From Akkermansia muciniphila (GTDB lineage Bacteria; Verrucomicrobiota; Kiritimatiellia; RFP12; UBA1067): a DNA stretch of 64,000 nucleotides. The stretch lies in the NCBI GenBank assembly GCA_945870145.1, contig CAMBQV010000001.1, positions 495 to 64,494 on the forward strand, read 5' to 3'. Positions 4,989 through 63,711 of this stretch are shown here, in pieces. The position numbers were made by a program, and so were the translations under genes. The notes under the pieces were generated by a model, which saw only the letters and a program-made list of their open reading frames with translations, was not told where the DNA came from and made no database searches. Position 1 is the first letter of the stretch. Every line of letters starts with the position of its first letter.

Positions 4989-4993
4989 AGGGT

Positions 4994-5479: not shown

Positions 5480-5484
5480 CTCCC

Positions 5485-39768: not shown

Positions 39769-39831
39769 GCGTCATAGTATACGCGTTTGATGCGCTTATA
39801 TTCAAGGTGCATTTTTTCAATAAATCCGTAC

Positions 39832-41643
39832 TTACGTTGCCGGGATCAGGCGCAGGGCAGAGACGCGGATGTTTCTGCCCTCTGCGGTGGTCGGGCCGAA
39901 GACGAGTTGCTGCGCGCCGGGTTTCGGAAAGTCAATGACGCCCACGCGGGTGGTGCGGAAACGTGGCAAGGCACCGCCAAAGGCTTTGCGGGTTGCCCGC
40001 TCACCAGTGTCAATCAAGGGGAAGGTCACACGGGTGTCACCGCAGTTTATACCCCACTCCGAGTAATCGTCGTCAGCAGGGCAGGTGTACTCCACATCGA
40101 GGTAGAAGGAACCGGGTGCGACGGTATTGAAGTTCCACGTTACAGAAGGCTCGCTCCCTTTCCAGTCACCCACGCACTCCATGTGTTTCCAGTCGCCGAA
40201 CTTTTCCATCCAGTTGACAGCCTTTATTTCGCACCCCTTCAAGTTCGCCATGCCCATTTCCAGGGTATTGTGGCAGCCGTTCAGCACATACAAGTCACGG
40301 CGCGCATCGATGGGTCCTGACAGTTCCAATGTGATGACTGGAATGAGCGTATCAGGACGCAGCTTCGGAACGTGGAGGATGAGGAGTTTCTCTTCATGTA
40401 CGACCTTGATGATCTCCCCTTCCAGTGTCGCCCGCTTGACCTTGGACTGGAGTCCCGGCAAGATGAGCTTGCCGTTCGAGGGCCATTGGAATACATGCAT
40501 AAAAAGTGTGTTGCCGCGTGCGGTACACTCGCCCCAGGGGATCGGGCCGAAGGGGGTTGAGTCTGTACCGTGAATCGCGTCTTTATGCGCATGGACCCAC
40601 GTGCCGACCTCGCGCAGGATGCGAGCCGACTGCTCGGGGATGTGTCCCTGACCGTCAGGTCCGACATTCAGCATGTAGGTTCCGCCGCGGCTGACCACAC
40701 GGACCAGCCGTTCAGCGATCTCGCTGGGGCTTTTCCAGTTGCGGTCATACCAGGCGTAGCCCCAAGTGTCGTTGGCGGTGTCAGGTGTCTCCCACAGGCC
40801 GGGACGTGGGAGGCGCGGAATCTCCTGGTCGCCAAGCGTGTCGTAATCGCCAAGCCCGTTGCCGATGCGGCTGTTGGCGAGACACTGAGGCTGGAGTTTG
40901 TGGACAAGGTCGACGAGCATCTTGGACTCCTCGGGTGTGATGGGTCCTGGAGTGTCAAACCAGACGCCGGCAATCGGACCGTAGTTCTTCAGCAACTCCT
41001 CAAGCTGAGGAATCGCCTTGCCTTTGAGATAACGTTGGAAATCGGCTTCGCTCTCTTTAAAATCCCAGTCATTGCCGATGGCGTCGCGCTCATGCCAGTC
41101 CTGCGATTGCGAATAGTAGAAGCCCAGCCGCAGACCGCCCGTGCTACAGGCCTCAGCCAGCTCTTTCATGGGGTCACGCTTGAAGGGCGTGGCATCCACG
41201 ATATTGTAGGGGCTGGTAGCAGACTTGAACATGGCGAACCCCTCGTGGTGTTTCGCCGTGATCATGACGTGGCGCATCCCGGTGTCTTTCGCAAGCTGGA
41301 CCCACTCCTTGGCATCGAACCCAACGGGGTTGAAACGGGATGCCACCTTCTCGTATTCAGCGACCGGAATTCGAGCTCGTTTCATGATCCACTCGGCGAT
41401 TCCATACTGGGACGTGTTGTTCCATTTGTTTCCTAGTTCGGAATAAAGTCCCCAGTGGATAAACATCGCAAAGCGCGAATCCTTTAGCCACGCCCCGCGT
41501 ACGGTGTTGGTCATTGATTTCCCCGTGCCCCACATGGCTGTCGAGGTGCCATCCACGGAGATCACACGCTCAGCCGCGCAGGAAAAAATGCACGAGAAGA
41601 TCAGCAAGCCTGCTGTGGTTCGGAATAATAGATTATTGTTCAT
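39832..41643 (-). CDS. alpha-L-fucosidase, GH29, secreted, with C-terminal beta-sandwich domain
   Basis: Signal peptide; FAMFIHWGLYS, ITAKHHEGFAMF and GNDWDFKESE motifs typical of GH29; 603 aa. Confidence 0.8.
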   Translation of the reverse strand: MNNNLLFRTTAGLLIFSCIFSCAAERVISVDGTSTAMWGTGKSMTNTVRGAWLKDSRFAMFIHWGLYSELGNKWNNTSQYGIAEWIMKRARIPVAEYEKVASRFNPVGFDAKEWVQLAKDTGMRHVMITAKHHEGFAMFKSATSPYNIVDATPFKRDPMKELAEACSTGGLRLGFYYSQSQDWHERDAIGNDWDFKESEADFQRYLKGKAIPQLEELLKNYGPIAGVWFDTPGPITPEESKMLVDLVHKLQPQCLANSRIGNGLGDYDTLGDQEIPRLPRPGLWETPDTANDTWGYAWYDRNWKSPSEIAERLVRVVSRGGTYMLNVGPDGQGHIPEQSARILREVGTWVHAHKDAIHGTDSTPFGPIPWGECTARGNTLFMHVFQWPSNGKLILPGLQSKVKRATLEGEIIKVVHEEKLLILHVPKLRPDTLIPVITLELSGPIDARRDLYVLNGCHNTLEMGMANLKGCEIKAVNWMEKFGDWKHMECVGDWKGSEPSVTWNFNTVAPGSFYLDVEYTCPADDDYSEWGINCGDTRVTFPLIDTGERATRKAFGGALPRFRTTRVGVIDFPKPGAQQLVFGPTTAEGRNIRVSALRLIPAT

Positions 41644-41663
41644 CGAGTTTTATCCTTTGTCTA

Positions 41664-44126: not shown

Positions 44127-44182
44127 TTTTAACCTTCCTTCTCCAGTGGCTCTCTGCGCGGATCATATCCCGACCAGAGATC

Positions 44183-47023: not shown

Positions 47024-47103
47024 TTTTTTAACTACCCCTCGCTCGCTTCACAAACACCCCTTACTGTTCAGGAAGTTTGAACGCTCTGTCGAAGACCGAT
47101 AAA

Positions 47104-49902: not shown

Positions 49903-49945
49903 AAACTATTGTCTCGGACGTGGATGTTGCCAAGCAAGGTGCCGC

Positions 49946-52900
49946 TTATAAGAAACTGATCATCGTACCGACGGGCGAATACTTCAGGAGTAGCGCATTG
50001 CTGTTTGTCTCGACTTTGTAGTCCCCATGAGGACCCGCCAATGCGCTTTTGTCCACCACGAAACGGTCAGATGAGAAACCAATGATCCCGCCACTTGCCA
50101 CTGCCAGCGTCCATGTATAGCTCCGGCCTGAGGTAAAATTCGCCGGCTGGCCTGGCACGGCGCCATTTAGCGTCACCAGCTTGACGGTGCAGGTTGTGGC
50201 GGCGAAAAGATCCAGCACACCGTTGACGGTCATTGTGTCGTATCCCGTGCCTGCGGCACCTGTCGCATCATTCATCTCGCAGGTGAGTTTCCCTCCCGTG
50301 TTCCAAACCTGTCCGCCTGTCGTCAGCGTGCCGATGAGTGAACCGGGGGAGAGGGTTCCGCTGTTGGTCACGATCCCTGAAACCGTTCCGTTTCCGGTCA
50401 AGGTTCCCAAGGAGGTGATGAGCACGGAGCCGCTTCCCGTGGCGCTGCCTGCGGTATTGCTGACGCAAAGCATACCCCCACTGATCGTTGTCAGTCCTGA
50501 ATAGGTGTTGTTAGTGCCACTCAAGACAAGCGTGCCGGTGCCGACCTTGGTCAGCGCTAGCGTACCCGCGGTATTCTTGATCGCGCCGCCGAAGGTCGTG
50601 GTGTCGTTGTCGTTACCCACCGTCAGGGTGGCGACACCGGAGATCGTGTTATTCACCACGCTGCTGCCGGTGCCGCTGCTGGAAAGACCATTGATGGTTT
50701 CATTGTTTCCGGCAAGGTCGAAGGTCGCAGTATTGGGGCTGATGGGGTCGAAGGAGAGGTCGCCTTTTCCGGAACCGTCCGGAATGACGCCTGCCGCCCC
50801 GAGTTTCAACGTGCCACTAGCGATCCTGGTGCCTCCGGCGTAGGTGTTGGCGCCGCTTAGAACCTGGACAGATGCCCCAGCTCCCGCAATATACAACTCG
50901 CCTGGGCCGTTGATGGTTCCGCTGAAGATCGCCCCGCTGAAGTATGAGGGCATACTCAGCGACAGGCTGGAGCCTGAAGGCAGGTTACTCACGCTACCGG
51001 CTCCGCTGAGGTATCCAACCCCTTCGGCCTTGCTATTCAGGTCAAAGGTGCTGCCGACTGCGATGTCAACGCGCACGTAGTCGCTGATGCAGTGCTGATT
51101 CTGTGCCAGCTTGACGGTGCTGTTTCCTTTGACAAAAAGGGTCGCAGACCCGTTTCCATAGATACCTTCCATGAACTTGTTGTATCCCTCATACAAGAGA
51201 TTCAGGGTTCCGCCTCCGGTCACAATGACAGAGTAGTTCGGGTTCGCGACTGCCAGCTTTCGCGTAGTCAATGTCTGGCCGCTCGCAATGTTAATCGTCA
51301 GGTTGCCGGACGCGAGTTCCATGCGGTCGTCACCGCCCTCGGCCTGAGCGATCGTGGCGCTGGTATTGACAATAATGGACGGCCCCGTACCGCCAAAGGA
51401 GAGCGTATTGACCCCGGCCACCGCACTCTGGTCAATCGTGTAGTTTCCGGAACCCGGCGCGTTAAAAACGAGACCGTTGAGGGTGATGGTGCCGCTTTGG
51501 GTGATGCTTCCCGCTGCGCCGCTGTTAGCCCCGATAATTGCCACGTCCGTTATTGTGTTGCCCCAAGCACCGTATGTGGAGCCGTTGAGCCAGTTAGCGC
51601 CGCCTGAAGCGACCCAGGAACCAGCACCGTCATTCAACGGCGCCACGCCGTCTGCATCCCAGGTATACGCCTTCGGGCCGGTCTGGACTGTTAAGACCCC
51701 TGTGCCCTGAAAATACATATCGCTCTTGTTGTCGGCTGCGCTGGAGGTCGACCCCCAGGTGCCTGCTGCCTTCGGAACGCCATCGAGCATGAGCTGCTTT
51801 ACGGTCTGATTGATACTGCTGTCCAGATCCAATTTTCCGGGATAATCAATAGAGACTACTGTGGCCGGATTCAGGCTGGCTCCGGTGGCAAGCCGCAGCA
51901 CACCGTTATTGATCGTCGTTGCCCCGGCATATTGGCACAGACCCGAGAGCGTCTGCATGCCACTGCCCGTCTTCACAAGATTCATCACCGTGCTCAATGC
52001 GGCCGCATTCGTCACGATTGTTCCCGAAAACGTTCCGCTCCCATTGTCCACACCGACTGTAACTGTGACATTGTTCCACTGCTGCGCCTTGGTGATGATA
52101 CCACTTCCCGTAAGCGCATCGACATACACCGCATTCCCGTCCCGGAGATCGAACTTACCATCCACATTCATATCCGCGAGATTCTGCAAAAGCCTTATTT
52201 TTTGCCATTCCCCGTTGTAGAGTTCGCTGCCAGACTGAATGTCAATCACGCCGCCGGAACCGAGCGAGAGGTTAACAATGCCACCGTTACTACCTGCGAA
52301 CCGTCCGCCTGATATACGAAGCGTGCCGGAACCTGAAATTGTATGCGTGCCCGGCGGGGTCTGTCGATCACCTTCAAGATGTAACACCGACCCGGAGGCG
52401 ATCGAGTAGTTCAGAAACTTGTTGTTCCAATAATCCCACAAAAGACGTAGCGTCCCGCCTCCTGTAACAAAGGCGGTCGAATTCGCGTTGGCACCCTTCA
52501 TCCTTCGCGTGGTCAACGTCTGTCCACTGGCGATGTTCACCGTCAGTGTATCCCCAGCGAACGCAATGTTGTCGTCGTCTTCCCATTGATTCTGATCGAT
52601 CAAGGCGCTGCTATTGACTTCTATGGCCGGTGCCGTGCCGCCAAAGGAGAGCACATTGGCTCCTGGCGAGTACTGGCTAAGGGTGTAGCTACCGGATCCA
52701 GGGGCGTTGAACGTGAGTTTGTTGAGGATGTTGGTGCCGCTCTGCCAAATGGTGCCCCCAGCTCCGCTGCCCACCCCTATGATGGCTTTGTCCGCCGTGG
52801 TATTGCCCCAGGCGCCGTAGGTGGATCCGTTGAACCAGTTGGCACCGCCGGAGGAAACCCACGCGCCGCCACCGTCATTCAGGGGTGCCCCGCCGCTGGC

Positions 52901-52999
52901 ATCCCACGTGTAGTCTGTTGCCCGGATAGTCGAACTCACTGACAGAATAAAGAGTGAGCTAAGCGCCATACATTTCGTCTTTTGATTTCTTACGTTCAT
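49946..52999 (-). CDS. giant secreted autotransporter-associated beta-strand (PATR) repeat protein
   Basis: Internal duplication TDYTWDASGGAPLNDGGGAWVSSGGANWFNGSTYGAWGNTTADKAIIG / KAYTWDADGVAPLNDGAGSWVASGGANWLNGSTYGAWGNTITDVAIIG. Repeated GGGTLxL and GTLTL units. GGGAGGA RBS then ATG at 52999 (MNVRNQKTKCMALSSLFILS signal). The track ORF starts at 53149. Confidence 0.7.
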   Translation of the reverse strand: MNVRNQKTKCMALSSLFILSVSSTIRATDYTWDASGGAPLNDGGGAWVSSGGANWFNGSTYGAWGNTTADKAIIGVGSGAGGTIWQSGTNILNKLTFNAPGSGSYTLSQYSPGANVLSFGGTAPAIEVNSSALIDQNQWEDDDNIAFAGDTLTVNIASGQTLTTRRMKGANANSTAFVTGGGTLRLLWDYWNNKFLNYSIASGSVLHLEGDRQTPPGTHTISGSGTLRISGGRFAGSNGGIVNLSLGSGGVIDIQSGSELYNGEWQKIRLLQNLADMNVDGKFDLRDGNAVYVDALTGSGIITKAQQWNNVTVTVGVDNGSGTFSGTIVTNAAALSTVMNLVKTGSGMQTLSGLCQYAGATTINNGVLRLATGASLNPATVVSIDYPGKLDLDSSINQTVKQLMLDGVPKAAGTWGSTSSAADNKSDMYFQGTGVLTVQTGPKAYTWDADGVAPLNDGAGSWVASGGANWLNGSTYGAWGNTITDVAIIGANSGAAGSITQSGTITLNGLVFNAPGSGNYTIDQSAVAGVNTLSFGGTGPSIIVNTSATIAQAEGGDDRMELASGNLTINIASGQTLTTRKLAVANPNYSVIVTGGGTLNLLYEGYNKFMEGIYGNGSATLFVKGNSTVKLAQNQHCISDYVRVDIAVGSTFDLNSKAEGVGYLSGAGSVSNLPSGSSLSLSMPSYFSGAIFSGTINGPGELYIAGAGASVQVLSGANTYAGGTRIASGTLKLGAAGVIPDGSGKGDLSFDPISPNTATFDLAGNNETINGLSSSGTGSSVVNNTISGVATLTVGNDNDTTTFGGAIKNTAGTLALTKVGTGTLVLSGTNNTYSGLTTISGGMLCVSNTAGSATGSGSVLITSLGTLTGNGTVSGIVTNSGTLSPGSLIGTLTTGGQVWNTGGKLTCEMNDATGAAGTGYDTMTVNGVLDLFAATTCTVKLVTLNGAVPGQPANFTSGRSYTWTLAVASGGIIGFSSDRFVVDKSALAGPHGDYKVETNSNALLLKYSPVGTMISFL

Positions 53000-53103
53000 A
53001 ATCCTCCCTTTTTCGTTTCGGAATACCCGCTGCATTCTAGCCAGCATAAATAGCCCCATACGACTTTCTGTCAGTATCGCATAACCGTTCCTCTTTGAAT
53101 ACA

Positions 53104-53150
53104 GACAATTTGTGCAAATATCGGACAATTTGTGCAATTGGACGTGCAAA
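53104..53150. promoter_or_regulatory. direct repeats GACAATTTGTGCAA x2 (20-bp periodicity) plus partial third, in divergent promoter between PATR gene and XylR-like regulator
   Basis: 53104-53117 and 53124-53137 are identical 14-mers; GACGTGCAAA follows at 53141-53150. Direct-repeat half-sites are typical of AraC/XylR operators. Confidence 0.4.
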
Positions 53151-54310
53151 GTCTTCAGGGATCTGTTAGAGTAACCACCATCATAAAGAGGAAAACGTCT
53201 ATCCTGTTTCTACTCGCCTGGAATGATTATCGTATCTTTCAGGGGATCAGCCGTTATGCCCACCAGGCTGGGTGGCAGATGGATACGCGCCATTTTTTTC
53301 TGAATCTCTTTCCCAAAGATCGCACGTTCCAGGGCATGATCGCCATGTATCACAATGACCCTGCCGTCAGGGCTTACATCCGGGAGAAGGCGGAGCACGT
53401 GCCGACTGTGATCCTTGGGACCCAGAACCCCGGTGTCAAGGCACCTATGGTCATGCCGGATAATCGCGCGGCCGGTTGCTTGGCAGCTGACCATCTGTTT
53501 AATCTTTTCCATAAGCATTACGGATGGTTTGCCTGTGACTCCTGTCCGTCAGGCAAAGAGCGAAAGCTTGCCTTTGAGGGACGTCTTCGTGAACAAGGCT
53601 TCTCCTGTGTTGATCTTTCGTGTGGCAAAGCTCCTTTCAATGCAACAACGGTCATGCACAAACTGAAGCAGAGCCCTAAACCCTTAGGCGTGATGGCCCG
53701 TGATGACCATGACGCCGCCGTGCTGCTCGACCTCTGCCAGCGCGCCGGACTTTGCACGCCCGAAGAGGTCGCTGTGATCGGGGTGGGCGATCTAGAGTCG
53801 CTCTGCGCCTTCTCCCCCTTGCCGGTTTCCAGTATCAGCCTGAACATGGATGAGCTGGGCTTTCAATCTGCGGCGGTTCTCGATCAGCTTATGCGTGGCA
53901 AGCCTGTGCCTGATAAATCCGTCATCCCGCCAGGTCCGCTGACACAACGCCTCTCGACCGGATGTCTGGCTATCACCCATCCTGACCTGCGGGTCGCGGT
54001 CAACAAGATCGACAAGGAGTATAAAACACTCCTGACGATGGATGACCTTGCCCTAGCAGCCGGCATCTCCCGTCGCCAACTCTATCTGCTGTTCGAAAAC
54101 GAAATGCGCTGTTCGCCCTGTGATTATCTGCTAAACGTACGCCTGGAGTATGCCCGAAAACTTGTAACAGAAAACAAACTTCACTTAAATGAGATCGCGC
54201 AGGTGTGCGGGTTCAACACGCCGCGTACCCTCCACCGGGTCTTTCTTCAGCGCTTTGGGCTCTCTCCTTCCAAATGGGCAAAAAACTATGATCTTATCAC
54301 GCATACCTGA
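53132..54310 (+). CDS. XylR-like transcriptional regulator (periplasmic-binding-protein-like sugar-sensing domain plus AraC-type HTH)
   Basis: N-terminus KRKTSILFLLAWNDYRIFQGISRYAHQAGWQMD is collinear with E. coli XylR RITLLFNANKAYDRQVVEGVGEYL. C-terminus LAAGISRRQLYLLFENEM...LNEIAQVCGFNTPRTLHRVFLQRFGLSPSKW is an AraC HTH. The track start is a GTG inside the operator repeat; the true start is probably slightly downstream (for example GTG 53144). Confidence 0.75.
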   Translation: MQLDVQSLQGSVRVTTIIKRKTSILFLLAWNDYRIFQGISRYAHQAGWQMDTRHFFLNLFPKDRTFQGMIAMYHNDPAVRAYIREKAEHVPTVILGTQNPGVKAPMVMPDNRAAGCLAADHLFNLFHKHYGWFACDSCPSGKERKLAFEGRLREQGFSCVDLSCGKAPFNATTVMHKLKQSPKPLGVMARDDHDAAVLLDLCQRAGLCTPEEVAVIGVGDLESLCAFSPLPVSSISLNMDELGFQSAAVLDQLMRGKPVPDKSVIPPGPLTQRLSTGCLAITHPDLRVAVNKIDKEYKTLLTMDDLALAAGISRRQLYLLFENEMRCSPCDYLLNVRLEYARKLVTENKLHLNEIAQVCGFNTPRTLHRVFLQRFGLSPSKWAKNYDLITHT

Positions 54311-54560
54311 AAAAGTATTCGAAGTGGCTGGGGTCGTTATCGGTTTTATAGGGCCGATTCTGATCGCGCTCCAAATCCGTGTCGAGTGGCTCAGTCAGAC
54401 GCCCTCATCACTCTCTCCCGCCTATCTCGGAGGTTTTCTCTTGGTCTATTTCTTCTGGTTTCTCTATGGTGTCCGGTTCAACCGCTTTGCGGTCTGGTTC
54501 GGAAACCTTATGGGGATTATCTTACAAACGATCCTCTTAATCCTTGTGTTAGCACTCTGA
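54283..54560 (+). CDS. small 3-TM membrane protein, SemiSWEET/PQ-loop-like (tentative)
   Basis: MILSRIPEKVFEVAGVVIGFIGPILIALQIRVEWLSQTPSSLSPAYLGGFLLVYFFWFLYG... 92 aa; WFLYG matches the SemiSWEET WxxYG motif; ALQ sits in place of the PQ motif. Overlaps the 3' end of the xylR-like gene in another frame. Confidence 0.4.
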
Positions 54561-54610
54561 CTACCGCAACAATTCTAATTATGGCGTGGGATACGGATAC
54601 GCTATACCCA

Positions 54611-55294
54611 TTAATAACTGTCACCGCTGGTTACAGCGCCTTCGAGAATCGCACGGGCGGTCCGTACGCCGATCCCGAAGCGGCGGACACCTCGTTCGTA
54701 CATCGCGAGGAGCGTCTGGAGATCCTTCACGCCACCCGCTGCCTTGACCTGACAGCGGTCACCTACGGCCTGCTTCATCAGAGTCACATTCTCCAGTGTC
54801 GCACCTGTAGGTGCCCAGCCTGTACCGGTCTTCACCCAGGAGGCGCCTGCTTCGACACACCATTCGCAGGCCCGGACAATCTCGTCAGGCGTCAACCAGT
54901 GACACTCCAAAATGACCTTGACTGGCAGACCCCTGGAAGCTTGTATCACGGAGCGGACATCGTTCACGTAGGCACCTTTGTTATTGGCCTTGAGCCAGGC
55001 GATATTATTGACCATGTCAATTTCCCGACACCCCATGGACACAAGCTCCTTCGCGACGACCACCTTGGTCGCAGTGGTTTCTGCTCCGCCCGGAAATCCG
55101 ACTGCTCCTCCAGCAAAGACTGTACTCCCGCCCAATTTTGAAATCAGGTAGGGCGTATGTGCCGGAAGCGCGAAGACGCAGATACAACCATACTGCTTGG
55201 CCAGCTCAGCAGATTCTTTGATCTCTTCCATCGTACTATCCGCGCGCACCGCGCTGATATCCATCAGCTTCGCAATCTCATTCGTTGTCATCAT
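54611..55294 (-). CDS. deoC: deoxyribose-phosphate aldolase (DeoC/LacD family)
   Basis: LMDISAVRADSTMEEI..., ...VKTGTGW..., catalytic-Lys region VKAAGGVKDL; RBS GGGGAGA then ATGATG. The track ORF extends to 55336. Confidence 0.8.
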   Translation of the reverse strand: MMTTNEIAKLMDISAVRADSTMEEIKESAELAKQYGCICVFALPAHTPYLISKLGGSTVFAGGAVGFPGGAETTATKVVVAKELVSMGCREIDMVNNIAWLKANNKGAYVNDVRSVIQASRGLPVKVILECHWLTPDEIVRACEWCVEAGASWVKTGTGWAPTGATLENVTLMKQAVGDRCQVKAAGGVKDLQTLLAMYERGVRRFGIGVRTARAILEGAVTSGDSY

Positions 55295-55341
55295 CGTCTC
55301 CCCAACTAACGCACTAACGCAATAACGCACTAACACACTTC

Positions 55342-56076
55342 TTAAATCGCCGTATACCCGCCATCAATAATCAAATCACTCCCCGTCATATACCCAGAAG
55401 CATCGCTTGCCAAATAAATGAAGAGGCCTGTCAACTCATCTGGCTTTCCGAGACGGCCCAAGGGAATGCGCGGTTTCCAGATCGCATGATAGTCGGTGAG
55501 GGGTTCGACCAGTTCGGTCATGATATAACCGGGGCTGATGCTGTTGACGCGGATGTTACGGGTAGCCAACTCGATGGCCAACGCCTTCGTCAACATCAGC
55601 ACGGCCCCTTTGGAAACACAGTAGTGACCAATGTCCTGAGGCGTGTTGACCACATGTCCTGACATCGAGGCCGTGACAATGATGCTCCCGCCTGACTTCA
55701 TCTCTTTCGCACAGGTTCGTGCGACAAGGAAGACACCTGTCACATTCGTCTTTTGGACGCTTTCAAACTCCTCCACTGGCATATCGCAGAGTTTCGCCAG
55801 CGTGACAATGCCGGCATTACAAACGGCAACATCAATTCGACCCCACTTCTTCATGACCAAAGCGACCATGGAAGCAACCGAGGCTTCATTTGTCACATCA
55901 CACGATACAGCAAAGGCGGACTCACCCAACTCGTTTTCAGTGTCCGTCAGTTTCGTCGTGTCGCGCGCAACCAGCGCGACCTTGGCACCCATCTTGACAT
56001 ACGCCCGCGCCACAGCCTTGCCAATGCCACTGGTCGCGCCCGTCACAATCGCCACTTTATTCGTCAGTTCAAACAT
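55342..56076 (-). CDS. SDR family NAD(P)-dependent oxidoreductase
   Basis: VAIVTGATSGIGKAVA Rossmann motif; NAG; YxxxK (YCVSKGAVLMLTK). Confidence 0.85.
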   Translation of the reverse strand: MFELTNKVAIVTGATSGIGKAVARAYVKMGAKVALVARDTTKLTDTENELGESAFAVSCDVTNEASVASMVALVMKKWGRIDVAVCNAGIVTLAKLCDMPVEEFESVQKTNVTGVFLVARTCAKEMKSGGSIIVTASMSGHVVNTPQDIGHYCVSKGAVLMLTKALAIELATRNIRVNSISPGYIMTELVEPLTDYHAIWKPRIPLGRLGKPDELTGLFIYLASDASGYMTGSDLIIDGGYTAI

Positions 56077-56114
56077 AGTTCTCTCCTTAACCTATAACTT
56101 GGCTAAATTATCTC

Positions 56115-56275
56115 GCACAAAGCCACGAAGCCACAAAGAATATGAGACTGAAGCTTCATTTCTTAACTTTGTGGCCTTGAGTCTTTGTGCGATACAGTTA
56201 TTCATTCGTTTATTCCCGGGTCTTAACTGCCAACTGCTACTGCCGACTGCTACTGTGCCGCCCCCAGGCGGCACG
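56115..56275. repeat. intergenic hairpin with CCACAAAG-unit arms (56115-56139 and 56166-56190), then a GCAGT-family tandem repeat (56226-56256) and GC hairpin GTGCCGCC-CCCA-GGCGGCAC (56254-56275)
   Basis: cgcacaaagccacgaagccacaaag pairs with ctttgtggccttgagtctttgtgcg. ctgccaactgctactgccgactgctactg belongs to the same family as 1899-1933 and 5434-5479. Confidence 0.45.
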
Positions 56276-56276
56276 A

Positions 56277-57074
56277 TTACCCCTGATATCCAAAAATGCG
56301 TGAGATTTTCAAAGCCCCGTCCCGAATCTGTTCACCAATGCTTGGATACTGGCTCGGCGTGACACGATTATCCGGACCCGTCACCCAGATCGCCGCAATC
56401 GGAAACCCGTTACGGTCAAAAATCGGGGCCCCTAAGCAGTAAATGCCAGCGTACTCCTCGCCATGATCAATCGAATACCCTTTTTCGCGCACAGTCGTAA
56501 GCTCCTGCTGAAACGCCTTGAGCGAGGTGATCGTGTGATTGTTGTACTTCACAAACTTGATATTCTGAATTGTGCGATCCCGTTGATCCTCTGGCAGAAA
56601 TCCCAGCATTGCCTTGCCAGGCGCAGAGGCATGGAGACCGATCCGGTGTCCGGCAGTCAATGAAAACCGAAAGAGATGCGAGCCCAAGACGCTTTCGAGC
56701 ACAATGATTTCCATCGCATTCAGCACGCCCAAGGCGACTGTATCCTGCAAGGCATCACGTAGCTTACGCATGGTGGGCAACGCATTGCCCACCAGGTCAA
56801 TCTCCGAGATGGCCTTCTGACCCAACATCAGCAGCTTCATCGTATGACGAAAGGCTTTAGTCTGCGGATTGCGGATCAGATATCCCGCCTTTTCGAGGCT
56901 CAGCGTCATGCGAAACACACTGGCAGAGGGGCATTTCAACGCCTCCGCAATCTCATTTTGGGTCTTGCCTTCAGGATGTTCCGCAAGGTATTCCAAGATG
57001 GCCAAGCCCCGTTCGAGTCCGGGCACCGAATAGGTCGTATCAGATTTCTTTTTTTTACTGCTTGTCGCCGTCAT
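56277..57074 (-). CDS. IclR family transcriptional regulator
   Basis: LERGLAILEYLAEHPEGKTQNEIAEALKCPSASVFRMTLSLEKAGYL HTH plus C-terminal IclR effector domain. ATG at 57074 (MTATSSKKKK) overlaps the upstream gene end by 20 nt. The track ORF extends to 57194. Confidence 0.75.
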   Translation of the reverse strand: MTATSSKKKKSDTTYSVPGLERGLAILEYLAEHPEGKTQNEIAEALKCPSASVFRMTLSLEKAGYLIRNPQTKAFRHTMKLLMLGQKAISEIDLVGNALPTMRKLRDALQDTVALGVLNAMEIIVLESVLGSHLFRFSLTAGHRIGLHASAPGKAMLGFLPEDQRDRTIQNIKFVKYNNHTITSLKAFQQELTTVREKGYSIDHGEEYAGIYCLGAPIFDRNGFPIAAIWVTGPDNRVTPSQYPSIGEQIRDGALKISRIFGYQG

Positions 57075-60015
57075 AGATCTTCTTTCCGGTTCGAATAGCT
57101 TCATAGATTTTACTTTCAGCCGCAAGCCGTTCCTGATAACGGCGCTCACGCACCAGATCCGCTTCACAAGGCTGAAAGCCAGGTGCGTCAGCATCTGGCT
57201 TTTCGGCGAGACGCTTTTTGCCTTCGCTGATCAATGCGACAGCTTTCTTGTAGTTTTCGGAAAGTGGATCCATCTTGCCAAGCATGCGGCTCTTCTCCGA
57301 ACGCGTAAAGCTGATTTGTGAACGCTGCCGCGCACCATGACTGCCGGCAACCTTGCCACCTGTCAATCCTGAAAGGGTTTTGAGCTCACCACCCGTGAGT
57401 GGTGAACGGCCCCCCGGATTGCTCGGATAGGCACACTCATAGCGCGGATAGTAGGGCGCATTGATATCTACCCACGTAATAAGCCGGTCCATCTCCTCTG
57501 TCGACAACTTCACACCGTGATGACCCTTCTTCAGTACCTGAATCAGCGGCGAGAGGTGACTACCCCAACTGTAGGCTTCCTGAAGTTCAGCGAGTCCGCC
57601 CCCTACACACTTGACCATGTTCAAGGCCCAGAGATCCACATACGAGGTGGCAAAATAGACATCGCGATCCCCTGCGAGGTTGAGTTTTTCGCCTTCCTTC
57701 TTTCCATAGTCGTGACAAGTGATGCAGTGCTTGTTGAAGACAGGCTGGACCTCCTGCTGAAAACTGAAGAGGCGTGCGGGTCCGTACCACCCATTCAACT
57801 GATCCGCTTTGCGTGACAACGCCTTGGGCTTCTGCTTCACGGGCGGAATATCCCCTACTCGGTTCTCATGGCAACCCACACAGCCGTAGGTCTCGCCGGG
57901 TTGCACATAGATGCCTGAGCGCATAGACTGGATCAGCATGCCATCCTTGTCGAGCGCCTGAAAGTAAAGGTAAGTGTTGCCGGGTGCTGCGAAATAGGCG
58001 CTGCCATCGGCCTCCACAGGCACTATCCCTAAGATCCGCTTATTCTCAAAACTATGCCAGTTCATGGCGGCTGCCTGCGCTCCTTGCCCTCCCCAATCGC
58101 CCTGAGACCAGCTACGTTTCTCAGGGGATTCGACCACGCGTAAAAATTTAATCGCCCCTGGCTCTACACCCTTCATATGTGTCCCGATGGCCGCATTCTG
58201 AACATAAAAATAACCCGCTCCATTTACATCGGAGAAATTACGGCGCGTCGGTTGCACAGCCGGCTTTTTGCGCGGACGTATCGGCATCGGGTCATAGCAG
58301 CCGGGAGCTTCCGCAACCACCAACACCTCATTGCCATGGAGGTCTAAATAATAGATGCCCATCTCCTCGCCCTTGCCCGTCATACGGGAACAGAGAAAAT
58401 GTTCATCATCTAAAGGGATGGGGTCTTCGTATTTAATCTTGAGCCTGCCTGGCGAATCAAAGTTCTGTCCCTTCGTCGAGATCTGTTCGCGAAACTCAAC
58501 CGGCCATGTCCTGAGTACAGGCTCCTTGCCGTCCACACCCTTTGAACGGTCAATGAGGCCCAAGGCGCCCCAGGGACGGTCATGGCAAGCCGCAAGGACT
58601 GCGATACAGAGATTGGCCTTTGAAAGGGTCCGCGCATCAATCACGCCGCCGGGGCTTGTGGTGTTGTTGCCCCAATAAATGGCATGGCCTGTTCCATCCG
58701 GGTTGCAGACCCAAAGCCCCTGGGCGTCCCCGAAGTTGCGATCTACATACTCCCAACGGTCATAGAGGATACGTCCATCGGGCATTACGGAGGAATGACC
58801 CTCAAACAAGGTGGACTTTCCGATCTGGTGGATGTTTGCACCGTCTGGCTCCATGCGATAGAGATTGCACATGATGTGGCGGTTGCACATGCAATATTTG
58901 GGTTCACGCGAGCTGGAGAAGAGGATGTGGCCGTCCTGCAACCAAATCGGATCAATATCCGAGACTTGCGGCTTCGAGGTGAGCTGTTTTGCCTCCGGCT
59001 TCTCAAGTGAAAGCGTATAGATGTGATAATCATCTGTCACGCTCTTGCGCATTGAAAAGACAACCTTCTTCGCATCAAAGTCCACGTCCGGGTCACGGAC
59101 CGTCATTCCTTTGCCTGGCGCAAACAGTGTTGTGACCATGTTGGAGCGCACATCCAGAATCTTCAAGGCGCCCTCGGTATCATATTTTGGGGTATTGATC
59201 TCCTGAGTCTGAAACATCGTCTCGGTATTGTGATGATCGGAACGATACTGTTTGCGTGTGACAAAGAGGATGGGGGCACTATTGACAATCGGATTCAGCG
59301 TCACAAGCGCCTTGCGCTGGAAAGACGCGAGGTCCTGGGTCGTCTCCAACTCCTGAAGCAGTTGAGCAGCAGGATACTGCGGATAGAGCCGTCCCAACTC
59401 CTCAATCGCGGCCTTCGTCGGCGCCAAGACCTTGGCACTCAAGGCAGCCTTCTGCTGGGCAACGCGCTCCGCCATCTGGGTCGCATCAACTTTTCCGGAG
59501 CAGGTGATGTCATCCACGATAATATGTCCCCACCCTCCTGTAGCATGATCGACGACGCGGAAAAAGAGCGGCTTGCCCAGAGCTTCAGCCGGTACTGTCC
59601 AGCTGACCTGCTCCATCACCTGGTTGTCTTTACCACGGGCATAGAGGATCTCCTTTCCGTCGCTCGTGCAGAGCGCCACATAGACCTCCTGAGCGCTCCC
59701 CCCGCACACGCGCAACTTAACCGTGGGCGAATCGAGCATGACGATTGGCGATTCAATGATGCCCGTAAAGTCATCACTAGGGCCGTTCTGTGTATCCAAG
59801 GTCGAGAGAAAATAGGTGCCGGCCTTACCAAAAGGCGTTGCAGTCTGGTACTGCGTCTTGCGGTCGCTGATCAACTTGCCAAAACTCCCCTCAACAATCT
59901 GCCAACCCTGCAAATCGCCAGTCTCAAAACTAAAGTTTACCTCCGCTGCGCTGCAGACCTGCGCGAGGCAAAACAAGACGCTCATGGCCAGTACCACTTT
60001 TTTCATAAGTAACAT
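57055..60015 (-). CDS. secreted multidomain protein: N-terminal ConA-like/LamG-like domain, TolB/PD40-like beta-propeller region, C-terminal di-heme cytochrome c region (two CXXCH; PSCyt1-like)
   Basis: Signal peptide MLLMKKVVLAMSVLFCLAQVCSA. CVGCHENRVGD and CITCHDYGKKEGEKLNLAGD, the latter matching the Planctomycete cytochrome C (PSCyt1) CxxCH...L.L.D pattern. Propeller-like repeats DGHILFSSSRE and DGRILYDRWE. Confidence 0.6.
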   Translation of the reverse strand: MLLMKKVVLAMSVLFCLAQVCSAAEVNFSFETGDLQGWQIVEGSFGKLISDRKTQYQTATPFGKAGTYFLSTLDTQNGPSDDFTGIIESPIVMLDSPTVKLRVCGGSAQEVYVALCTSDGKEILYARGKDNQVMEQVSWTVPAEALGKPLFFRVVDHATGGWGHIIVDDITCSGKVDATQMAERVAQQKAALSAKVLAPTKAAIEELGRLYPQYPAAQLLQELETTQDLASFQRKALVTLNPIVNSAPILFVTRKQYRSDHHNTETMFQTQEINTPKYDTEGALKILDVRSNMVTTLFAPGKGMTVRDPDVDFDAKKVVFSMRKSVTDDYHIYTLSLEKPEAKQLTSKPQVSDIDPIWLQDGHILFSSSREPKYCMCNRHIMCNLYRMEPDGANIHQIGKSTLFEGHSSVMPDGRILYDRWEYVDRNFGDAQGLWVCNPDGTGHAIYWGNNTTSPGGVIDARTLSKANLCIAVLAACHDRPWGALGLIDRSKGVDGKEPVLRTWPVEFREQISTKGQNFDSPGRLKIKYEDPIPLDDEHFLCSRMTGKGEEMGIYYLDLHGNEVLVVAEAPGCYDPMPIRPRKKPAVQPTRRNFSDVNGAGYFYVQNAAIGTHMKGVEPGAIKFLRVVESPEKRSWSQGDWGGQGAQAAAMNWHSFENKRILGIVPVEADGSAYFAAPGNTYLYFQALDKDGMLIQSMRSGIYVQPGETYGCVGCHENRVGDIPPVKQKPKALSRKADQLNGWYGPARLFSFQQEVQPVFNKHCITCHDYGKKEGEKLNLAGDRDVYFATSYVDLWALNMVKCVGGGLAELQEAYSWGSHLSPLIQVLKKGHHGVKLSTEEMDRLITWVDINAPYYPRYECAYPSNPGGRSPLTGGELKTLSGLTGGKVAGSHGARQRSQISFTRSEKSRMLGKMDPLSENYKKAVALISEGKKRLAEKPDADAPGFQPCEADLVRERRYQERLAAESKIYEAIRTGKKIYDGDKQ

Positions 60016-60097
60016 CCTCTTTTATTGATGAAAAGATGGTACACCGATTACTCTAAGAATTCAAGCGGATTTTTGTCTCAAGACGAATCAAATATCA

Positions 60098-61160
60098 CGT
60101 CTGATCGATTGAGCGACTGAACGATTGAACGAGGAAACCCAAACTGGCGGCCTTGGACCAAGGAACAGCCGACCTACTTTGTTTCCACATTGCGAAGGCC
60201 GTTGCACTGAGGATATTTTGAGCACCCCCAGAATTCGCCTCCCGCATTCTTGCCGGCTTTTGCTTTCCGCTTACGCATGGGCGCTCCACACTCTGGACAC
60301 ACAGGCGCCGCCTCCTGACCAGCCAAGTTCTGACGGCGAGCCACCGAAAGCTTCTCCCTAAAGCCACCCTCTTCCCTAAATGTTTTCCCTAATGATTCGA
60401 GTTGCCGATTGAGCATCGTAATAGCTCGCTCGATCATAATGAGCAAAGCATTTGCAACCACCACATCATCTTCCGCATCTAACCACTGGACAAATTTCTT
60501 TCTCTGCGTAAGAACATGCCGGCAAGCATCGTGTAGCACATCATCGCCATACTCGGCTCGGTCGAGCTTGAGTGAAAAGACCTGCCTCGACATCTCCGTT
60601 TGCTTAGACCACGGCACCTGATTGAGTTTCATCAACCAGTTTAAGTAATCACCCTGTAACTCTGCAAAGGATGCACGGGCTACATCAATTAATTTCATCT
60701 CACTTTCCTTAGATGTCATGCCACGTGAAGAACCTTCTGCAATATTTGCCACACCTGAGCGCGCAGCTTGCGTCATCTGATCGTATTGCCGTCCTTTCGG
60801 ATCACTTTTGAATGTCAGGAAAGTTTCACAAAAGCGTTGTGTTCCCAACTGAATGAGGTTGGCCATCACCCATGAGTCGAGCCTGAAATGGCCGACCGTG
60901 CCGCCGAACATGCCCATTGTCACTCCTTATTTTCGACTGACCGATTAAACGACTGATCGATTGAACGGAACGACCCACGCTCCGTTTTTCGCTCTTTTTT
61001 CGAAGTATTTCAAAAGCTCGCACTTCAGACAAGCCCATTTTTATGTTCACTCGTCTTTAGCGCGTATTTCCTTAATCGTTCAGTCGATCAGCCATTCAGT
61101 CGATCAGTCGTCTCCCTCACACTCGTTCAGTCGCTCACTCGATCAATCGTTCAGTCGCTA
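60098..61160. mobile_element. IVS-like hairpin element: CGATTGAACGACTGA-family inverted arms (60098-60132 and 61074-61160, extra direct copy 60926-60968) enclosing a four-helix-bundle plus zinc-ribbon gene
   Basis: cgtctgatcgattgagcgactgaacgattgaacgag pairs with aatcgttcagtcgatcagccattcagtcgatcagtcg...cgatcaatcgttcagtcgc. Confidence 0.45.
60174..60923 (-). CDS. four helix bundle protein (Avd / 23S-IVS protein family) fused to C-terminal topoisomerase-type C4 zinc ribbon
   Basis: QMTQAARSGVANIAEGSSRGMTSKESEMKLIDVARASFAELQGD matches the 4HB ANIAEG motif. C-terminus CPECGAPMRKRKAKAGKNAGGEFWGCSKYPQCNG matches the zf-C4_Topoisom pattern. Confidence 0.7.
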   Translation of the reverse strand: MTMGMFGGTVGHFRLDSWVMANLIQLGTQRFCETFLTFKSDPKGRQYDQMTQAARSGVANIAEGSSRGMTSKESEMKLIDVARASFAELQGDYLNWLMKLNQVPWSKQTEMSRQVFSLKLDRAEYGDDVLHDACRHVLTQRKKFVQWLDAEDDVVVANALLIMIERAITMLNRQLESLGKTFREEGGFREKLSVARRQNLAGQEAAPVCPECGAPMRKRKAKAGKNAGGEFWGCSKYPQCNGLRNVETK

Positions 61161-61240
61161 TTTCACCTTCTTTTTACTCGCCTTCAAAAGCCCTTTCGTC
61201 TTATACTAAGCTCTTATTATTTAACAAGGGAGTCACACTT

Positions 61241-62587
61241 ATGAAGAGTTCACGTCGCACATTTCTAAAGACAGCCGGGGCAGCCATCACATTCCCGACG
61301 ATTATTCCTTCCCATGTCTTAGGGGAGAATGCACCTAGCAAGACGATTGCGCTCGGCCAGATCGGGTGCGGACGCATTGCACGCGACATGGACATCTCGG
61401 GCCTCATGAAGTGCAAAGGTGCCCGTTACGTCGCTGTGGCAGACTGTGACATCACTCGCGCAAATCTGGCGAAGACGCTCACCAAGTGCGAGAAGTCCTA
61501 TCAGGACTACCGCGAGCTCATCGCCGACAAGAGCATTGACGCTGTCGTGATCTCGACGCCCGACCATTGGCATGCACAGCCTGCTATCGAAGCCTCCTTC
61601 GCCAAGAAGGATGTCTACATGCAGAAGCCCACCTCCCTCACCATTGACGAGGGACGTTGTTTCGCGAACGCCATGGCACTTAACAAAACCGTCTTCCAGC
61701 TCGGTTCCCAACAACGCTCCACCTCGCAATTCCAACGCGCCTGCACCCTGGTGCGCAATGGCCGTCTGGGCAAGGTCCACACGATTGAGATCGGACTCCC
61801 TGGCGACCCCGGTGGTGGCAAGACGGATAAGATGGCTGTCCCTGAAAATCTGAACTATGATTTGTGGCTCGGCTCGACACCTGATGTGTTCTACACAGAA
61901 GATCGCGTCCATCCGCAAAAGGGATTCAGCCGTCCCGGCTGGCTTCGTTGCGAGCAGTTCGGCGCCGGCATGATCACAGGCTGGGGCTCCCACCATCTCG
62001 ACATCGCTCACTGGGGTATGGGCTGGGAAGCCATGGGACCTGTCACCATTGAGGGCAAGGGCGTGTTTCATACAACAGGCCTTTGGAATGTACATGGCGA
62101 TTATGATATCACCATGACCTATCCTGGGGACGTGAAGATGCATATCTGGGAGAAGTTCCCGAACGGCATCCGCTTCATCGGCGAAAAGGGCTGGATCTTT
62201 GTAAGCCGCGGTGGTGCAAAGATGACGGCCTCTGATCCGACCTCTCCGGGCAAGGCGCTCAAGGCTCTTGATGCCAGCGATCCAAGTCTCCTCGCCAGCG
62301 ATCCCGCCTCGGAACTGATCAAGCTCAACTGTTGGAGTGGTATTCACCAGCAGAACTGGGTCAACTGCATCAAGACCCGTGAAGAGAGCAACGTTCCCGC
62401 CGAGACAGCTCATCGCTCCTGCTCGGCTTGCCTAGTCGCCCATATCGGCATGAAGCTGGGACGCAAACTGACCTGGGATTACAAGACCGAGACCTTTGTC
62501 GGCGATGAAGCGGCCAACAAGCTGCTCAAGCGCGAAGAACGTGCCCCCTACGGCGCACGCCGCGCCTTTGAGAGACTTTCCTCTTAG
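61241..62587 (+). CDS. Gfo/Idh/MocA family oxidoreductase with Tat signal
   Basis: SRRTFLKTAGAAITFP Tat motif; STPDHWH, GSQQRS, IGLPGD and GSHHLDIAHW blocks. Confidence 0.8.
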   Translation: MKSSRRTFLKTAGAAITFPTIIPSHVLGENAPSKTIALGQIGCGRIARDMDISGLMKCKGARYVAVADCDITRANLAKTLTKCEKSYQDYRELIADKSIDAVVISTPDHWHAQPAIEASFAKKDVYMQKPTSLTIDEGRCFANAMALNKTVFQLGSQQRSTSQFQRACTLVRNGRLGKVHTIEIGLPGDPGGGKTDKMAVPENLNYDLWLGSTPDVFYTEDRVHPQKGFSRPGWLRCEQFGAGMITGWGSHHLDIAHWGMGWEAMGPVTIEGKGVFHTTGLWNVHGDYDITMTYPGDVKMHIWEKFPNGIRFIGEKGWIFVSRGGAKMTASDPTSPGKALKALDASDPSLLASDPASELIKLNCWSGIHQQNWVNCIKTREESNVPAETAHRSCSACLVAHIGMKLGRKLTWDYKTETFVGDEAANKLLKREERAPYGARRAFERLSS

Positions 62588-62620: not shown

Positions 62621-62660
62621 CATCGAACATTCAACATTGAACGTTGAACGTTGAACTTTT
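62621..62660. repeat. tandem (CA)TTGAACG units
   Basis: catcgaacattcaacattgaacgttgaacgttgaac; related to the repeats flanking the 60174-60923 gene. Confidence 0.4.
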
Positions 62661-62676
62661 AATAGGCAATTCTCTT

Positions 62677-63711
62677 ATGACACAGACACACTGGGAACAA
62701 CTCATCGCCGTGGTCAACGGACAACGGCTTGATAAACCGCTCTGCGGGTTCATCGCGGACAGCCCCTGGCTGCCAGGATGGACCAAGAAATATTCGATCC
62801 TCGACTACTTCACCTCGGACGAGATCTGGTTCAAGACAAACCTTGAAGCCATCAAGACCTTTCCCGACGCGATCTTCCTGCCGGGCTTCTGGTCCGAGTA
62901 TGGGATGTGCACGGAACCTTCCGCCTTTGGTTCGAAGCTGATCTGGCATGAGAACGAACTGCCCTTTGCCGCACCGATCGCCCCTCCTGGCGAGAAGGCA
63001 CTCGTTCTTGAAAAGCCGGATGTGACCTCCTCAGGGCTCCTGCCCTTCGCCCTGCGTCGCTTGGTGCGGATGCGTCCTGCTATCGAGGCTGAGGGACATG
63101 CCATACGCTTCGCCGTGGCGCGGGGTCCGCTCAACATCGCCTCCTTCCTCATGGGTACGACTGAGTTTCTGATGGCGATGCAGTTTGATCCTGAAGGCAC
63201 GCATGCCATGCTCAATGTGATTACAGCCTTCCTCGAGGATTGGCTGAAGCTTCAGGCCAAGAGCATCCCGACGATCAAAGGCACGATGTTGCTGGATGAT
63301 ATTGTCGGCTTCCTCGGACCAGAAGATGTCGAGACCTTTGCGGTCCCCTACCTGAAGCGCGCCTTTGCCGCAATTGACAGTGACGTACGGCTCTTCCACA
63401 ACGATGCGAACGGCACGAGCTGCGCGTCGCAAATGGGCGGCTGCGGCATCAACCTCTTCAACTTCGCCTTTGACCATCCCATCCAGGAGATGCGCGAATG
63501 GGTCGGTCCGAAGGTGTCGCTGCTCGGCAACATCCCGCCCCGGGACGTGCTGGCCGCAGGAACACCTGAGGATGTGCGCAAGGCAGTGGCAGCGATGAAG
63601 ACCGCACTGGGCAACGACTATTCCCGCGTGATCTTCTCCTGTGGCGGCGGCATTCCGCCAAATGTCTCTACTGCGAACATGAACGCCTTCCTCGCGGAAT
63701 CTATGTTGTAG
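62677..63711 (+). CDS. conserved hypothetical protein (possibly URO-D/MtaA-like TIM-barrel; function unresolved)
   Basis: 345-aa ORF with strong coding periodicity; no canonical HemE PVWxMRQAGR motif seen. The track ORF starts at 62644 inside the repeat. Confidence 0.4.
   Translation: MTQTHWEQLIAVVNGQRLDKPLCGFIADSPWLPGWTKKYSILDYFTSDEIWFKTNLEAIKTFPDAIFLPGFWSEYGMCTEPSAFGSKLIWHENELPFAAPIAPPGEKALVLEKPDVTSSGLLPFALRRLVRMRPAIEAEGHAIRFAVARGPLNIASFLMGTTEFLMAMQFDPEGTHAMLNVITAFLEDWLKLQAKSIPTIKGTMLLDDIVGFLGPEDVETFAVPYLKRAFAAIDSDVRLFHNDANGTSCASQMGGCGINLFNFAFDHPIQEMREWVGPKVSLLGNIPPRDVLAAGTPEDVRKAVAAMKTALGNDYSRVIFSCGGGIPPNVSTANMNAFLAESML

Follow-up and report, generated by a model that had tools for sequence, protein, structure and literature searches.

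The stretch of DNA analyzed here, 64,000 nucleotides of contig CAMBQV010000001.1 (assembly GCA_945870145.1; in the following, the window), encodes a predicted exported protein with two c-type heme motifs that is homologous to the alpha subunit of hydrazine synthase (HzsA). This two-heme protein is not a hydrazine synthase; in the interpretation favored here, which is given about an even chance of being correct, it performs the extracytoplasmic redox step of a carbohydrate operon controlled by an IclR-family regulator. Since the gene stands in the sugar-breakdown operon of a fermenter, an uncharacterized redox role in carbohydrate degradation is preferred over nitrogen chemistry. The HZS_alpha family and its non-anammox homologs are already known; the new elements are the retention of both heme sites in proteins that mostly have no partner, and the linkage to carbohydrate catabolism.

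Judged from the structural model, residues ~240-986 (residue numbers throughout follow the 986-amino-acid translation) form a full-length homolog of hydrazine synthase alpha with its three-domain fold. The sole strong Pfam match of the whole protein is the HZS_alpha middle domain PF18582, which aligns over its complete profile (positions 1-98 of 98) with residues 620-717 (E=2.9e-34; 118 bits against a gathering threshold of 26.6). An AlphaFold2 model built from 60 homologs (pLDDT 86, pTM 0.80; secondary structure assigned by DSSP) found its best match among solved structures, as searched with Foldseek, in HzsA of Kuenenia stuttgartiensis (5C2V chain A; E=5e-30, 788 aligned columns, TM score 0.60 on the target, 17% identity); TolB followed as the second-best fold (E~1e-9, TM 0.51), and other propellers were likewise far behind HzsA. 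When a profile of the family was aligned with the same structure (E=3e-18), the first CXXCH motif (CXXCH-1) fell on the heme alpha-I motif and the second (CXXCH-2) on the heme alpha-II motif. The ~23 propeller strands of the model are consistent with six blades; the PD40 match of the query remained at 16 bits, under the cut-off of 20.9, and PF07676 and PF26549 are precomputed for some homologs. TolB/PD40 six-bladed propellers share this part of the fold and are the best match outside HzsA; they differ in having no heme domains and another N-terminal domain.

The protein thus has in common with HzsA the six-bladed propeller, the CXXCH-bearing middle domain at the propeller interface, the C-terminal c-type heme domain, the export of both proteins, and an invariant histidine that coincides with the distal ligand His772 or lies beside it. 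The differences, beyond the low sequence identity, are an additional jelly-roll resembling a carbohydrate-binding module (CBM), a helical linker and a C-terminal helical extension; the query also has neither an HzsB/HzsC partner nor anammox genes nearby, and it is located in a fermenter's sugar-catabolic operon. In HzsA, Tyr591 binds the iron of heme alpha-I, and the CXXCH histidine coordinates zinc together with Cys303, to which the propeller residue C377 of the query may or may not correspond. Since no tyrosine follows CXXCH-1 in the query (CHENRVGD) or in the family consensus, ligation of the Tyr591 type is not reproduced, and ordinary histidine ligation of heme I is expected.

Both heme motifs are under strong conservation. 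The chance expectation for CXXCH from composition was 0.009, and two or more motifs arose in 2 of 20,000 shuffles. Both motifs were kept in all 120 close homologs (120/120), and in distant representatives of 50%-identity clusters (33-60% identity to the query) they were kept in 118/119 and 113/113 cases, respectively. His832, the candidate distal ligand of heme II, was invariant among the close homologs and present in 88% of the distant ones; in the profile alignment it lies at most one residue from HzsA alpha-His772, beside an indel, and the W-x-D motif directly after it is 100% conserved. Two covalently bound c-type hemes are predicted on the strength of these motifs, and heme II would probably be bis-histidine ligated through H768 and H832. 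Ten propeller residues (D353, R370, C377, D413, R420, W421, D425, D440, H478, and D489) are 90-99% conserved across the superfamily, and the middle-domain residues D670, D689, M698, and E708 are conserved at 97-99% in the distant representatives; by analogy with HzsA, these residues would fit a functional pocket at the interface of propeller and heme I. The conserved unit extends over query residues ~240-982, with variable N- and C-terminal extensions. A word-indexed search returned more than 2,900 homologs, nearly all of them unnamed or "hypothetical", the named ones coming from metagenome-assembled genomes of Kiritimatiellia or Lentisphaeria; an exhaustive search of 1.84 billion cluster representatives (50% identity) yielded 6,599 at E<=1e-3 and 1,435 at E<=1e-30. 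The label that Pfam provides for such proteins is "HZS_alpha domain-containing".

An earlier note on this DNA had described a secreted protein of 986 residues that combined a ConA-like domain, a TolB-like propeller and a di-heme c-type cytochrome module, in an architecture typical of the PVC bacteria (Planctomycetes, Verrucomicrobia, Chlamydiae) and functionally uncharacterized. The architecture is borne out as PVC-typical and uncharacterized, as are the propeller and both CXXCH motifs (CVGCH and CITCH); an HzsA-middle-like domain, which the note had listed among its checks, is clearly present. The two motifs do not constitute one di-heme module: each belongs to a domain of its own, and the two domains and the propeller jointly make up the HzsA three-domain fold. 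A PSCyt1-like context had been proposed for the second motif, and the local pattern (F..E.QP.F...C..CH...K.G.KL.L) indeed resembles that family; however, PSCyt1 (PF07635) was absent from the Pfam matches even at E<=1, and the domain aligns to the heme alpha-II domain of HzsA. The 986-residue open reading frame, counted from the first ATG, is uninterrupted, and its strand has to be corrected to minus, the plus-strand translation being full of stops. A start at the ATG at 60006, which gives 983 amino acids, is more likely because GAGG lies 9 nt upstream and because the same start is found in the database protein P0001 (983 amino acids) and in the ortholog of a near-identical strain (locus L084). 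The claim of secretion agrees with the N-terminus, where inspection finds the features of a Sec signal (KK, a hydrophobic core, and a cleavage context between SAA and E); the L084 ortholog has the same signal peptide fused straight onto the linker.

Residues 25-177, modeled alone (pLDDT 96.4), fold as a beta-sandwich jelly-roll, which accords with the earlier note as far as the fold is concerned. Foldseek placed closest to it the cleaved-adhesin domains K1-K3 of gingipain, MAM domains, CBM27, CBM35, and CBM4, together with recently solved porphyran- and alginate-binding CBMs and pectate-lyase-associated binding modules (TM 0.5-0.63); ConA/LamG models in Pfam gave no match even at E<=1. Since these neighbors are not ConA/LamG proteins proper, the domain is better described as a CBM-like jelly-roll, and "ConA-like" applies in a loose sense only. 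The L084 ortholog, with a 93% identical core and nearly identical upstream DNA, is without the jelly-roll, a clean presence/absence polymorphism between two strains (window 59413-60000 against L084 10007-10120), and for this reason the domain is considered dispensable; many homologs of ~820-830 amino acids are also without it. The same jelly-roll was found inside a GH116 enzyme and in a fragment that bears a GH32 domain. A profile search with the N-terminal domain returned mostly N-terminal fragments plus one GH32-linked copy, and a single-sequence search with this domain returned fragments only.

The HzsA-like gene stands at the head of an operon, in which it is co-transcribed with the gene of the IclR-family regulator and linked to an SDR oxidoreductase, a deoxyribose-phosphate aldolase (DeoC, or DERA) and FGGY sugar kinases (Table 1). 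The overlap between the IclR and HzsA-like genes recurs at loci L003 and L084. The gene order in L084 is HZS-IclR-SDR-DeoC-FGGY-FGGY2-VTT-PFOR, and the window is collinear with it save for two differences, the jelly-roll indel and a 14.87-kb glycoside hydrolase (GH) island inserted into the ancestral operon. The cargo of the island consists of an AraC/PBP regulator, a PATR protein, a GH120-like/CBM6/malectin protein, a DUF5703+LamG+GH95-like protein, an 820-amino-acid protein, and a GH29 fucosidase. A scan of positions 53000-61400 for promoters and terminators found sites no more numerous than in shuffled sequence. The rest of the window encodes pyruvate formate-lyase and its activase as well as two PFOR systems, along with a sulfatase and further GFO/IDH/MocA oxidoreductase (GFO) paralogs of the twin-arginine (TAT) type; this is the gene set of a fermentative anaerobe. 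The neighbors given in the earlier note are present, with IclR, SDR, and DeoC downstream and a four-helix-bundle gene upstream, and its judgment that the surroundings do not suggest respiration is supported. That upstream gene (60174-60923, minus strand) combines a four-helix bundle of the 23S-rRNA-intervening-sequence type with a topoisomerase-type Zn ribbon; it lies between the divergent GFO gene and the heme protein gene in the window and in L084, and is absent from this place in L003 and L005.

Table 1. Positions of the HzsA-like gene, its domains and its neighbors in the window, and of selected genes at related loci.
Feature	Sequence	Positions	Strand	Remarks
HzsA-like di-heme protein gene	window	57055-60015	-	uninterrupted open reading frame; stop codon 57055-57057
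Sec-type signal peptide	window	59944-60015	-	residues 1-24, MLLMKKVVLAMSVLFCLAQVCSAA, followed by E; sequence inspection
Beta-sandwich jelly-roll, CBM/MAM/cleaved-adhesin-like	window	59485-59943	-	residues 25-177; optional module
Three-helix linker	window	59296-59484	-	residues 178-240; DSSP of model
Six-bladed TolB/PD40-like beta-propeller	window	58186-59283	-	residues ~245-610; Pfam, model, Foldseek, conservation
HZS_alpha middle domain (PF18582)	window	57865-58158	-	residues 620-717; all-beta, ends in heme I motif
CXXCH-1 (C712-V-G-C715-H716)	window	57868-57882	-	CVGCH; aligned to HzsA heme alpha-I motif
C-terminal cytochrome c-type helical domain	window	57436-57783	-	residues ~745-860, with CXXCH-2; model, Foldseek, profile alignment
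CXXCH-2 (C764-I-T-C767-H768)	window	57712-57726	-	CITCH; aligned to HzsA heme alpha-II motif
His832, candidate distal heme II ligand	window	57520-57522	-	conservation and profile alignment
C-terminal helical extension	window	57058-57408	-	residues ~870-986; model
IclR-family regulator	window	56277-57074	-	start at 57074; 20-nt overlap with end of HzsA-like gene
SDR oxidoreductase, sugar-dehydrogenase-like	window	55342-56076	-	
Deoxyribose-phosphate aldolase (DeoC/DERA)	window	54611-55336	-	TIGR00126, 187 bits (cut-off 117)
Glycoside hydrolase island, 14.87 kb	window	39769-54635		inserted between DeoC and FGGY of ancestral operon
FGGY sugar kinase, xylulokinase-like	window	38305-39768	-	86%-identical ortholog of the kinase right after DeoC in L003 and L084
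Second FGGY kinase of operon	window	36693-38228	-	
GFO/IDH/MocA oxidoreductase with TAT signal	window	61241-62587	+	divergently transcribed; recurrent family neighbor
HzsBC-like gene	L048	12270-14111		these three loci: two Sedimentisphaerales and one Armatimonadota
HzsBC-like gene	L056	13274-15112		
HzsBC-like gene	L050	450-2357		
TAT-exported GH116 with jelly-roll copy	L008	4391-7495		inside IclR-...-DeoC-FGGY-HZS operon
TAT-exported GH116 with jelly-roll copy	L029	3984-7106		inside IclR-...-DeoC-FGGY-HZS operon

The linkage to this operon extends beyond the window. Gene context was compared at 80 of the more than 564 loci available in species-representative genomes, to which metagenome look-ups added another seven. 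A same-strand module of IclR, SDR or iron-dependent alcohol dehydrogenase (Fe-ADH), DeoC and FGGY adjoins a family member at a minimum of 16 of ~80 loci, or ~13 after near-identical relatives are merged, usually in the order IclR-SDR-DeoC-FGGY-HZS; it is found in Kiritimatiellia and Lentisphaeria (L008, L010, L013, L016, L019, L027, L029, L085) and also in Thermoguttaceae (L064), Planctomycetaceae (L075), and Phycisphaerae (L074). Since DeoC is normally a single-copy gene, this recurrence should be far above chance. Tandem paralogs of the heme protein are common, and the remaining neighbors are heterogeneous, with scattered glycoside hydrolases, sulfatases and PAS kinases; a bulk Pfam scan of 115 unlabeled operon neighbors brought up no further dominant family, none occurring in more than three members. 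Some candidate neighbors were reassigned on inspection: a membrane protein upstream of the L074 operon is not RhaT-like, and a supposed HZS-like paralog at L064 (8480-10483) is a sulfatase. The protein at L008 and L029 that had been taken for a divergent TAT-exported HZS-like paralog has no CXXCH motif, shares the jelly-roll only, and is a GH116 enzyme, whose closest solved relative is an exo-beta-D-arabinofuranosidase (8ic6, E=6e-80); its N-terminus is unusually rich in cysteine (CCSGNCGCG ahead of SRRDFFK). This enzyme fills the operon slot that is held by a second HzsA-like paralog in L003 and L005. 2-Deoxy-D-ribose is the same compound as 2-deoxy-D-arabinose, and the possible connection of deoxyribose with an arabinofuranosidase may offer a lead toward the link between glycan and DERA.

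Domain fusions point in the same direction. Among 37 long family members and one further member, the HzsA-like core was fused to Laminin_G_3 (three members), NPCBM (two), and 3-keto-disaccharide hydrolase domains (two), and also to GH43, GH123 with a GDSL esterase, GH28, the sugar-binding domains of GH2 (GH2_N), a GH59 lectin domain, an FGE-sulfatase and PATR repeats, with F5/8 type C in the one further member. Independent fusions of the core are overwhelmingly to carbohydrate-active or carbohydrate-binding modules. Of the two roles that the earlier note had considered conceivable, glycan processing fits these findings; sulfur processing has thin backing, in sulfatase neighbors at a few loci and the single FGE-sulfatase fusion.

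Genes resembling those of hydrazine synthase have been reported outside the anammox bacteria (Suarez et al., 2023; PMC10732223), and Hagglund et al. (2025; PMC12758564) described non-anammox HzsA homologs in clades I-IV, picked for their co-location with a fused HzsBC-like gene. These homologs have a canonical heme I pocket and are without the HzsA-specific residues; clades II and III lack heme II, clade I lacks the distal histidine, and no function was named (PMC12758564). Both studies raise the idea that the family is broader and acts on other substrates (PMC10732223, PMC12758564). The present family shares with these homologs the fold, the canonical heme I pocket and the occurrence in anaerobic Planctomycetota and relatives; in contrast to the described clades, it keeps both hemes and the histidine, is tied to IclR, SDR, DeoC, and FGGY genes, is fused to carbohydrate-active enzyme modules, and is mostly unpartnered. 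An HzsBC-like protein of ~614 amino acids (a seven-bladed propeller, CCP_MauG and cytochrome c, with two CXXCH motifs) is encoded downstream in 3 of ~76 loci, and an HzsBC-like module is fused to the C-terminus of two further members (P0147 and P0197). No literature was found that ties hydrazine-synthase-like proteins to polysaccharide use or carbohydrate catabolism, or that treats clusters of DeoC, FGGY, and IclR.

Under the proposed function, a glycan-derived sugar would bind to the propeller face beside heme I, with its ordinary histidine ligand, in a geometry derived from HzsA, and would be oxidized or reduced in the propeller pocket that faces this heme. Through heme II as a relay, electrons would be passed to a periplasmic partner or received from it. 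The product would then be imported and processed by the co-transcribed SDR (Fe-ADH in other species), the FGGY kinase or kinases, and deoxyribose-phosphate aldolase. Heme loading, a catalytic as opposed to a relay role, the direction of electron flow and the substrate are all inferred in this scheme. A secreted combination of CBM, beta-propeller and cytochrome domain or domains has a functional analogy, with no homology claimed, in modular propeller dehydrogenases such as the fungal AA12-AA8-CBM1 pyranose dehydrogenase and the quinohemoprotein dehydrogenases; the query differs in that its hemes are c-type in an HzsA-type arrangement and that PQQ-type repeats are missing. Assignment as a PQQ quinohemoprotein was rejected, as no PQQ-family propeller repeats were matched in the protein by Pfam.

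Several observations weigh against the proposed redox step. Attachment of hemes is predicted from the motifs, and generic cytochrome c models of Pfam stayed below threshold (Cytochrome_CBB3 19.4 bits, cut-off 27; Cytochrom_C 14.6, cut-off 21.3); neither cytochrome c maturation genes nor any further cytochrome are present in the 64-kb window. A fermenter equipped with PFOR and pyruvate formate-lyase has no evident periplasmic electron sink, and the cultured kiritimatiellian K. glycovorans has no cytochromes (PMC5148204); another cultured representative, Pontiella, has several (PMC7356697). The operon includes neither a transporter nor an isomerase, which leaves the pathway incomplete, and it is not obvious how a glycan would give rise to a DERA substrate. 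The kinase/aldolase module accompanies just ~1/5 of the loci, the other contexts being heterogeneous. Finally, the adjacency of GFO genes is weak evidence, because such genes are abundant in the carrier genomes, with three in the window.

The GFO neighbors are also the starting point of an alternative, considered fairly unlikely, in which the protein is a pure electron carrier: a di-heme cytochrome would re-oxidize or reduce TAT-exported sugar dehydrogenases of the GFO/IDH/MocA type, which bind NAD(P) tightly, and the non-catalytic propeller would dock partners or glycans. A GFO gene with a TAT signal is indeed divergently adjacent in the window, GFO genes occur within 10 kb in 16/76 loci, some of them directly downstream or overlapping (L076 and L026, and L012 and L023 with overlap; further examples are L085 and L087), and the 3-keto-disaccharide hydrolase fused to two members is a domain of the GFO-type 3-keto-glycoside route; in addition, M698, 98% conserved, could make heme I six-coordinate. 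Yet paralogs this numerous are likely to be neighbors by chance, it is to DeoC and FGGY, and not to GFO, that the family is most strongly and specifically linked, and the conservation of some ten propeller residues exceeds the needs of a docking surface. The conserved constellation of Asp, Arg, His, Trp, and Tyr in the propeller, which resembles carbohydrate-active sites, could instead belong to a heme-independent hydrolase or lyase for an unusual linkage, with the hemes as structural or redox-sensing relics of an HzsA-like scaffold; this is regarded as rather improbable. The fusions of the core to glycoside hydrolases, the variable CBM-like N-terminal domain and the exchange of a second family member for GH116 in one operon slot would suit such an enzyme, and the fold matches include propeller lyases of family PL22. 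However, the CXXCH motifs and H832 are as strictly conserved as any propeller residue, where relics would be expected to have decayed in at least some lineages. Kinship with the PL22 oligogalacturonate lyases was rejected; the similarity (E 2e-7, TM 0.43) is of a generic propeller kind and weaker than that to TolB.

Chemistry closer to that of the anammox enzyme can be considered in two forms. The protein might detoxify or convert small nitrogen or oxygen species (nitric oxide, hydroxylamine, peroxide), with a chemistry inherited from the hydrazine synthase/cytochrome c peroxidase lineage and a sugar-operon linkage that is regulatory. The homology to HzsA and the fusion or adjacency of some members to CCP_MauG-type di-heme proteins, like HzsBC, speak for this possibility, which is nevertheless held to be very unlikely: no CCP_MauG-type partner occurs in the window or in the Kiritimatiellia loci, the HzsA-specific ligands are absent (PMC12758564), and the CBM-like module, the glycoside hydrolase fusions and the DeoC/FGGY linkage would be left unexplained. 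A genuine hydrazine synthase alpha in a cryptic anammox bacterium, which can draw on nothing beyond the common fold and the HZS_alpha domain, has next to no probability. The NCBIfam equivalog model for hydrazine_alpha (NF052339) scored 49.8 bits against a cut-off of 800, in a match limited to the middle domain; the distance from HzsA and the missing tyrosine after CXXCH-1 point the same way, hzsB/hzsC, hdh, and hao are all absent among the open reading frames of the fermentative window, and the published analysis of other non-anammox homologs came to the same conclusion (PMC12758564).

Hydrazine synthase is among the most unusual enzymes of the nitrogen cycle. The locus described here belongs to a much larger sister family of non-anammox homologs (~1,400 clusters at 50% identity, E<=1e-30), which gains a concrete and testable context in the IclR-controlled kinase/aldolase operon, the glycoside hydrolase fusions and the carbohydrate-binding modules. 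A wider proposal, advanced tentatively and with more doubt than confidence, is that HzsA-fold di-heme propeller proteins constitute a large heme-c class of "auxiliary activity", performing redox reactions on glycans or unusual sugars in the periplasm of anaerobic PVC-type bacteria, ahead of a deoxy-sugar kinase/aldolase pathway, and that anammox HzsA was recruited from this class. If this is true, heme-c redox chemistry would join the toolkit of anaerobic polysaccharide degradation in bacteria of gut, rumen and sediment, and the kind of enzyme ancestral to hydrazine synthase would be identified.

Further observations concern the carriers and their neighborhoods. In "Verrucomicrobia bacterium UBA1200" (L047), a membrane-anchored cytochrome of 332 amino acids with nine CXXCH motifs (4593-5588) is encoded 4.4 kb upstream of a family member; at least some carriers accordingly make multiheme cytochromes. 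A URO-D/MtaA-like gene (62644-63711) lies upstream of the HzsA-like gene in the window, beyond the GFO gene, and URO-D/MtaA-like genes flank relatives as well. Locus L086 (1-22976) has the order HZS, radical SAM, URO-D, RhaT transporter, a second HZS with F5/8 type C, transposase and FGGY, with ThuA, a B12-binding protein, URO-D, and CobW upstream; such neighborhoods with URO-D hint at methyl transfer that depends on corrinoids and may act on O-methyl sugars. The three GFO/IDH/MocA_C2 paralogs of the window are located at 13217-14599, 20577-21914, and 61241-62587, the last with a clear twin-arginine signal; a sulfatase is found close to one of the three, and a xylose-isomerase-like TIM barrel close to another. 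The closest relative in the genome collection (L015, CAYWNP010000115.1; 88% identity) is labeled "uncultured Akkermansia sp.", probably an artefact of binning or taxonomy; all remaining close relatives that carry a name belong to Kiritimatiellia or Lentisphaeria. The 820-amino-acid protein of the island (41664-44126, minus strand) matched no Pfam family and, by sequence, no solved structure, and it may be a candidate for an undescribed glycan-active enzyme.

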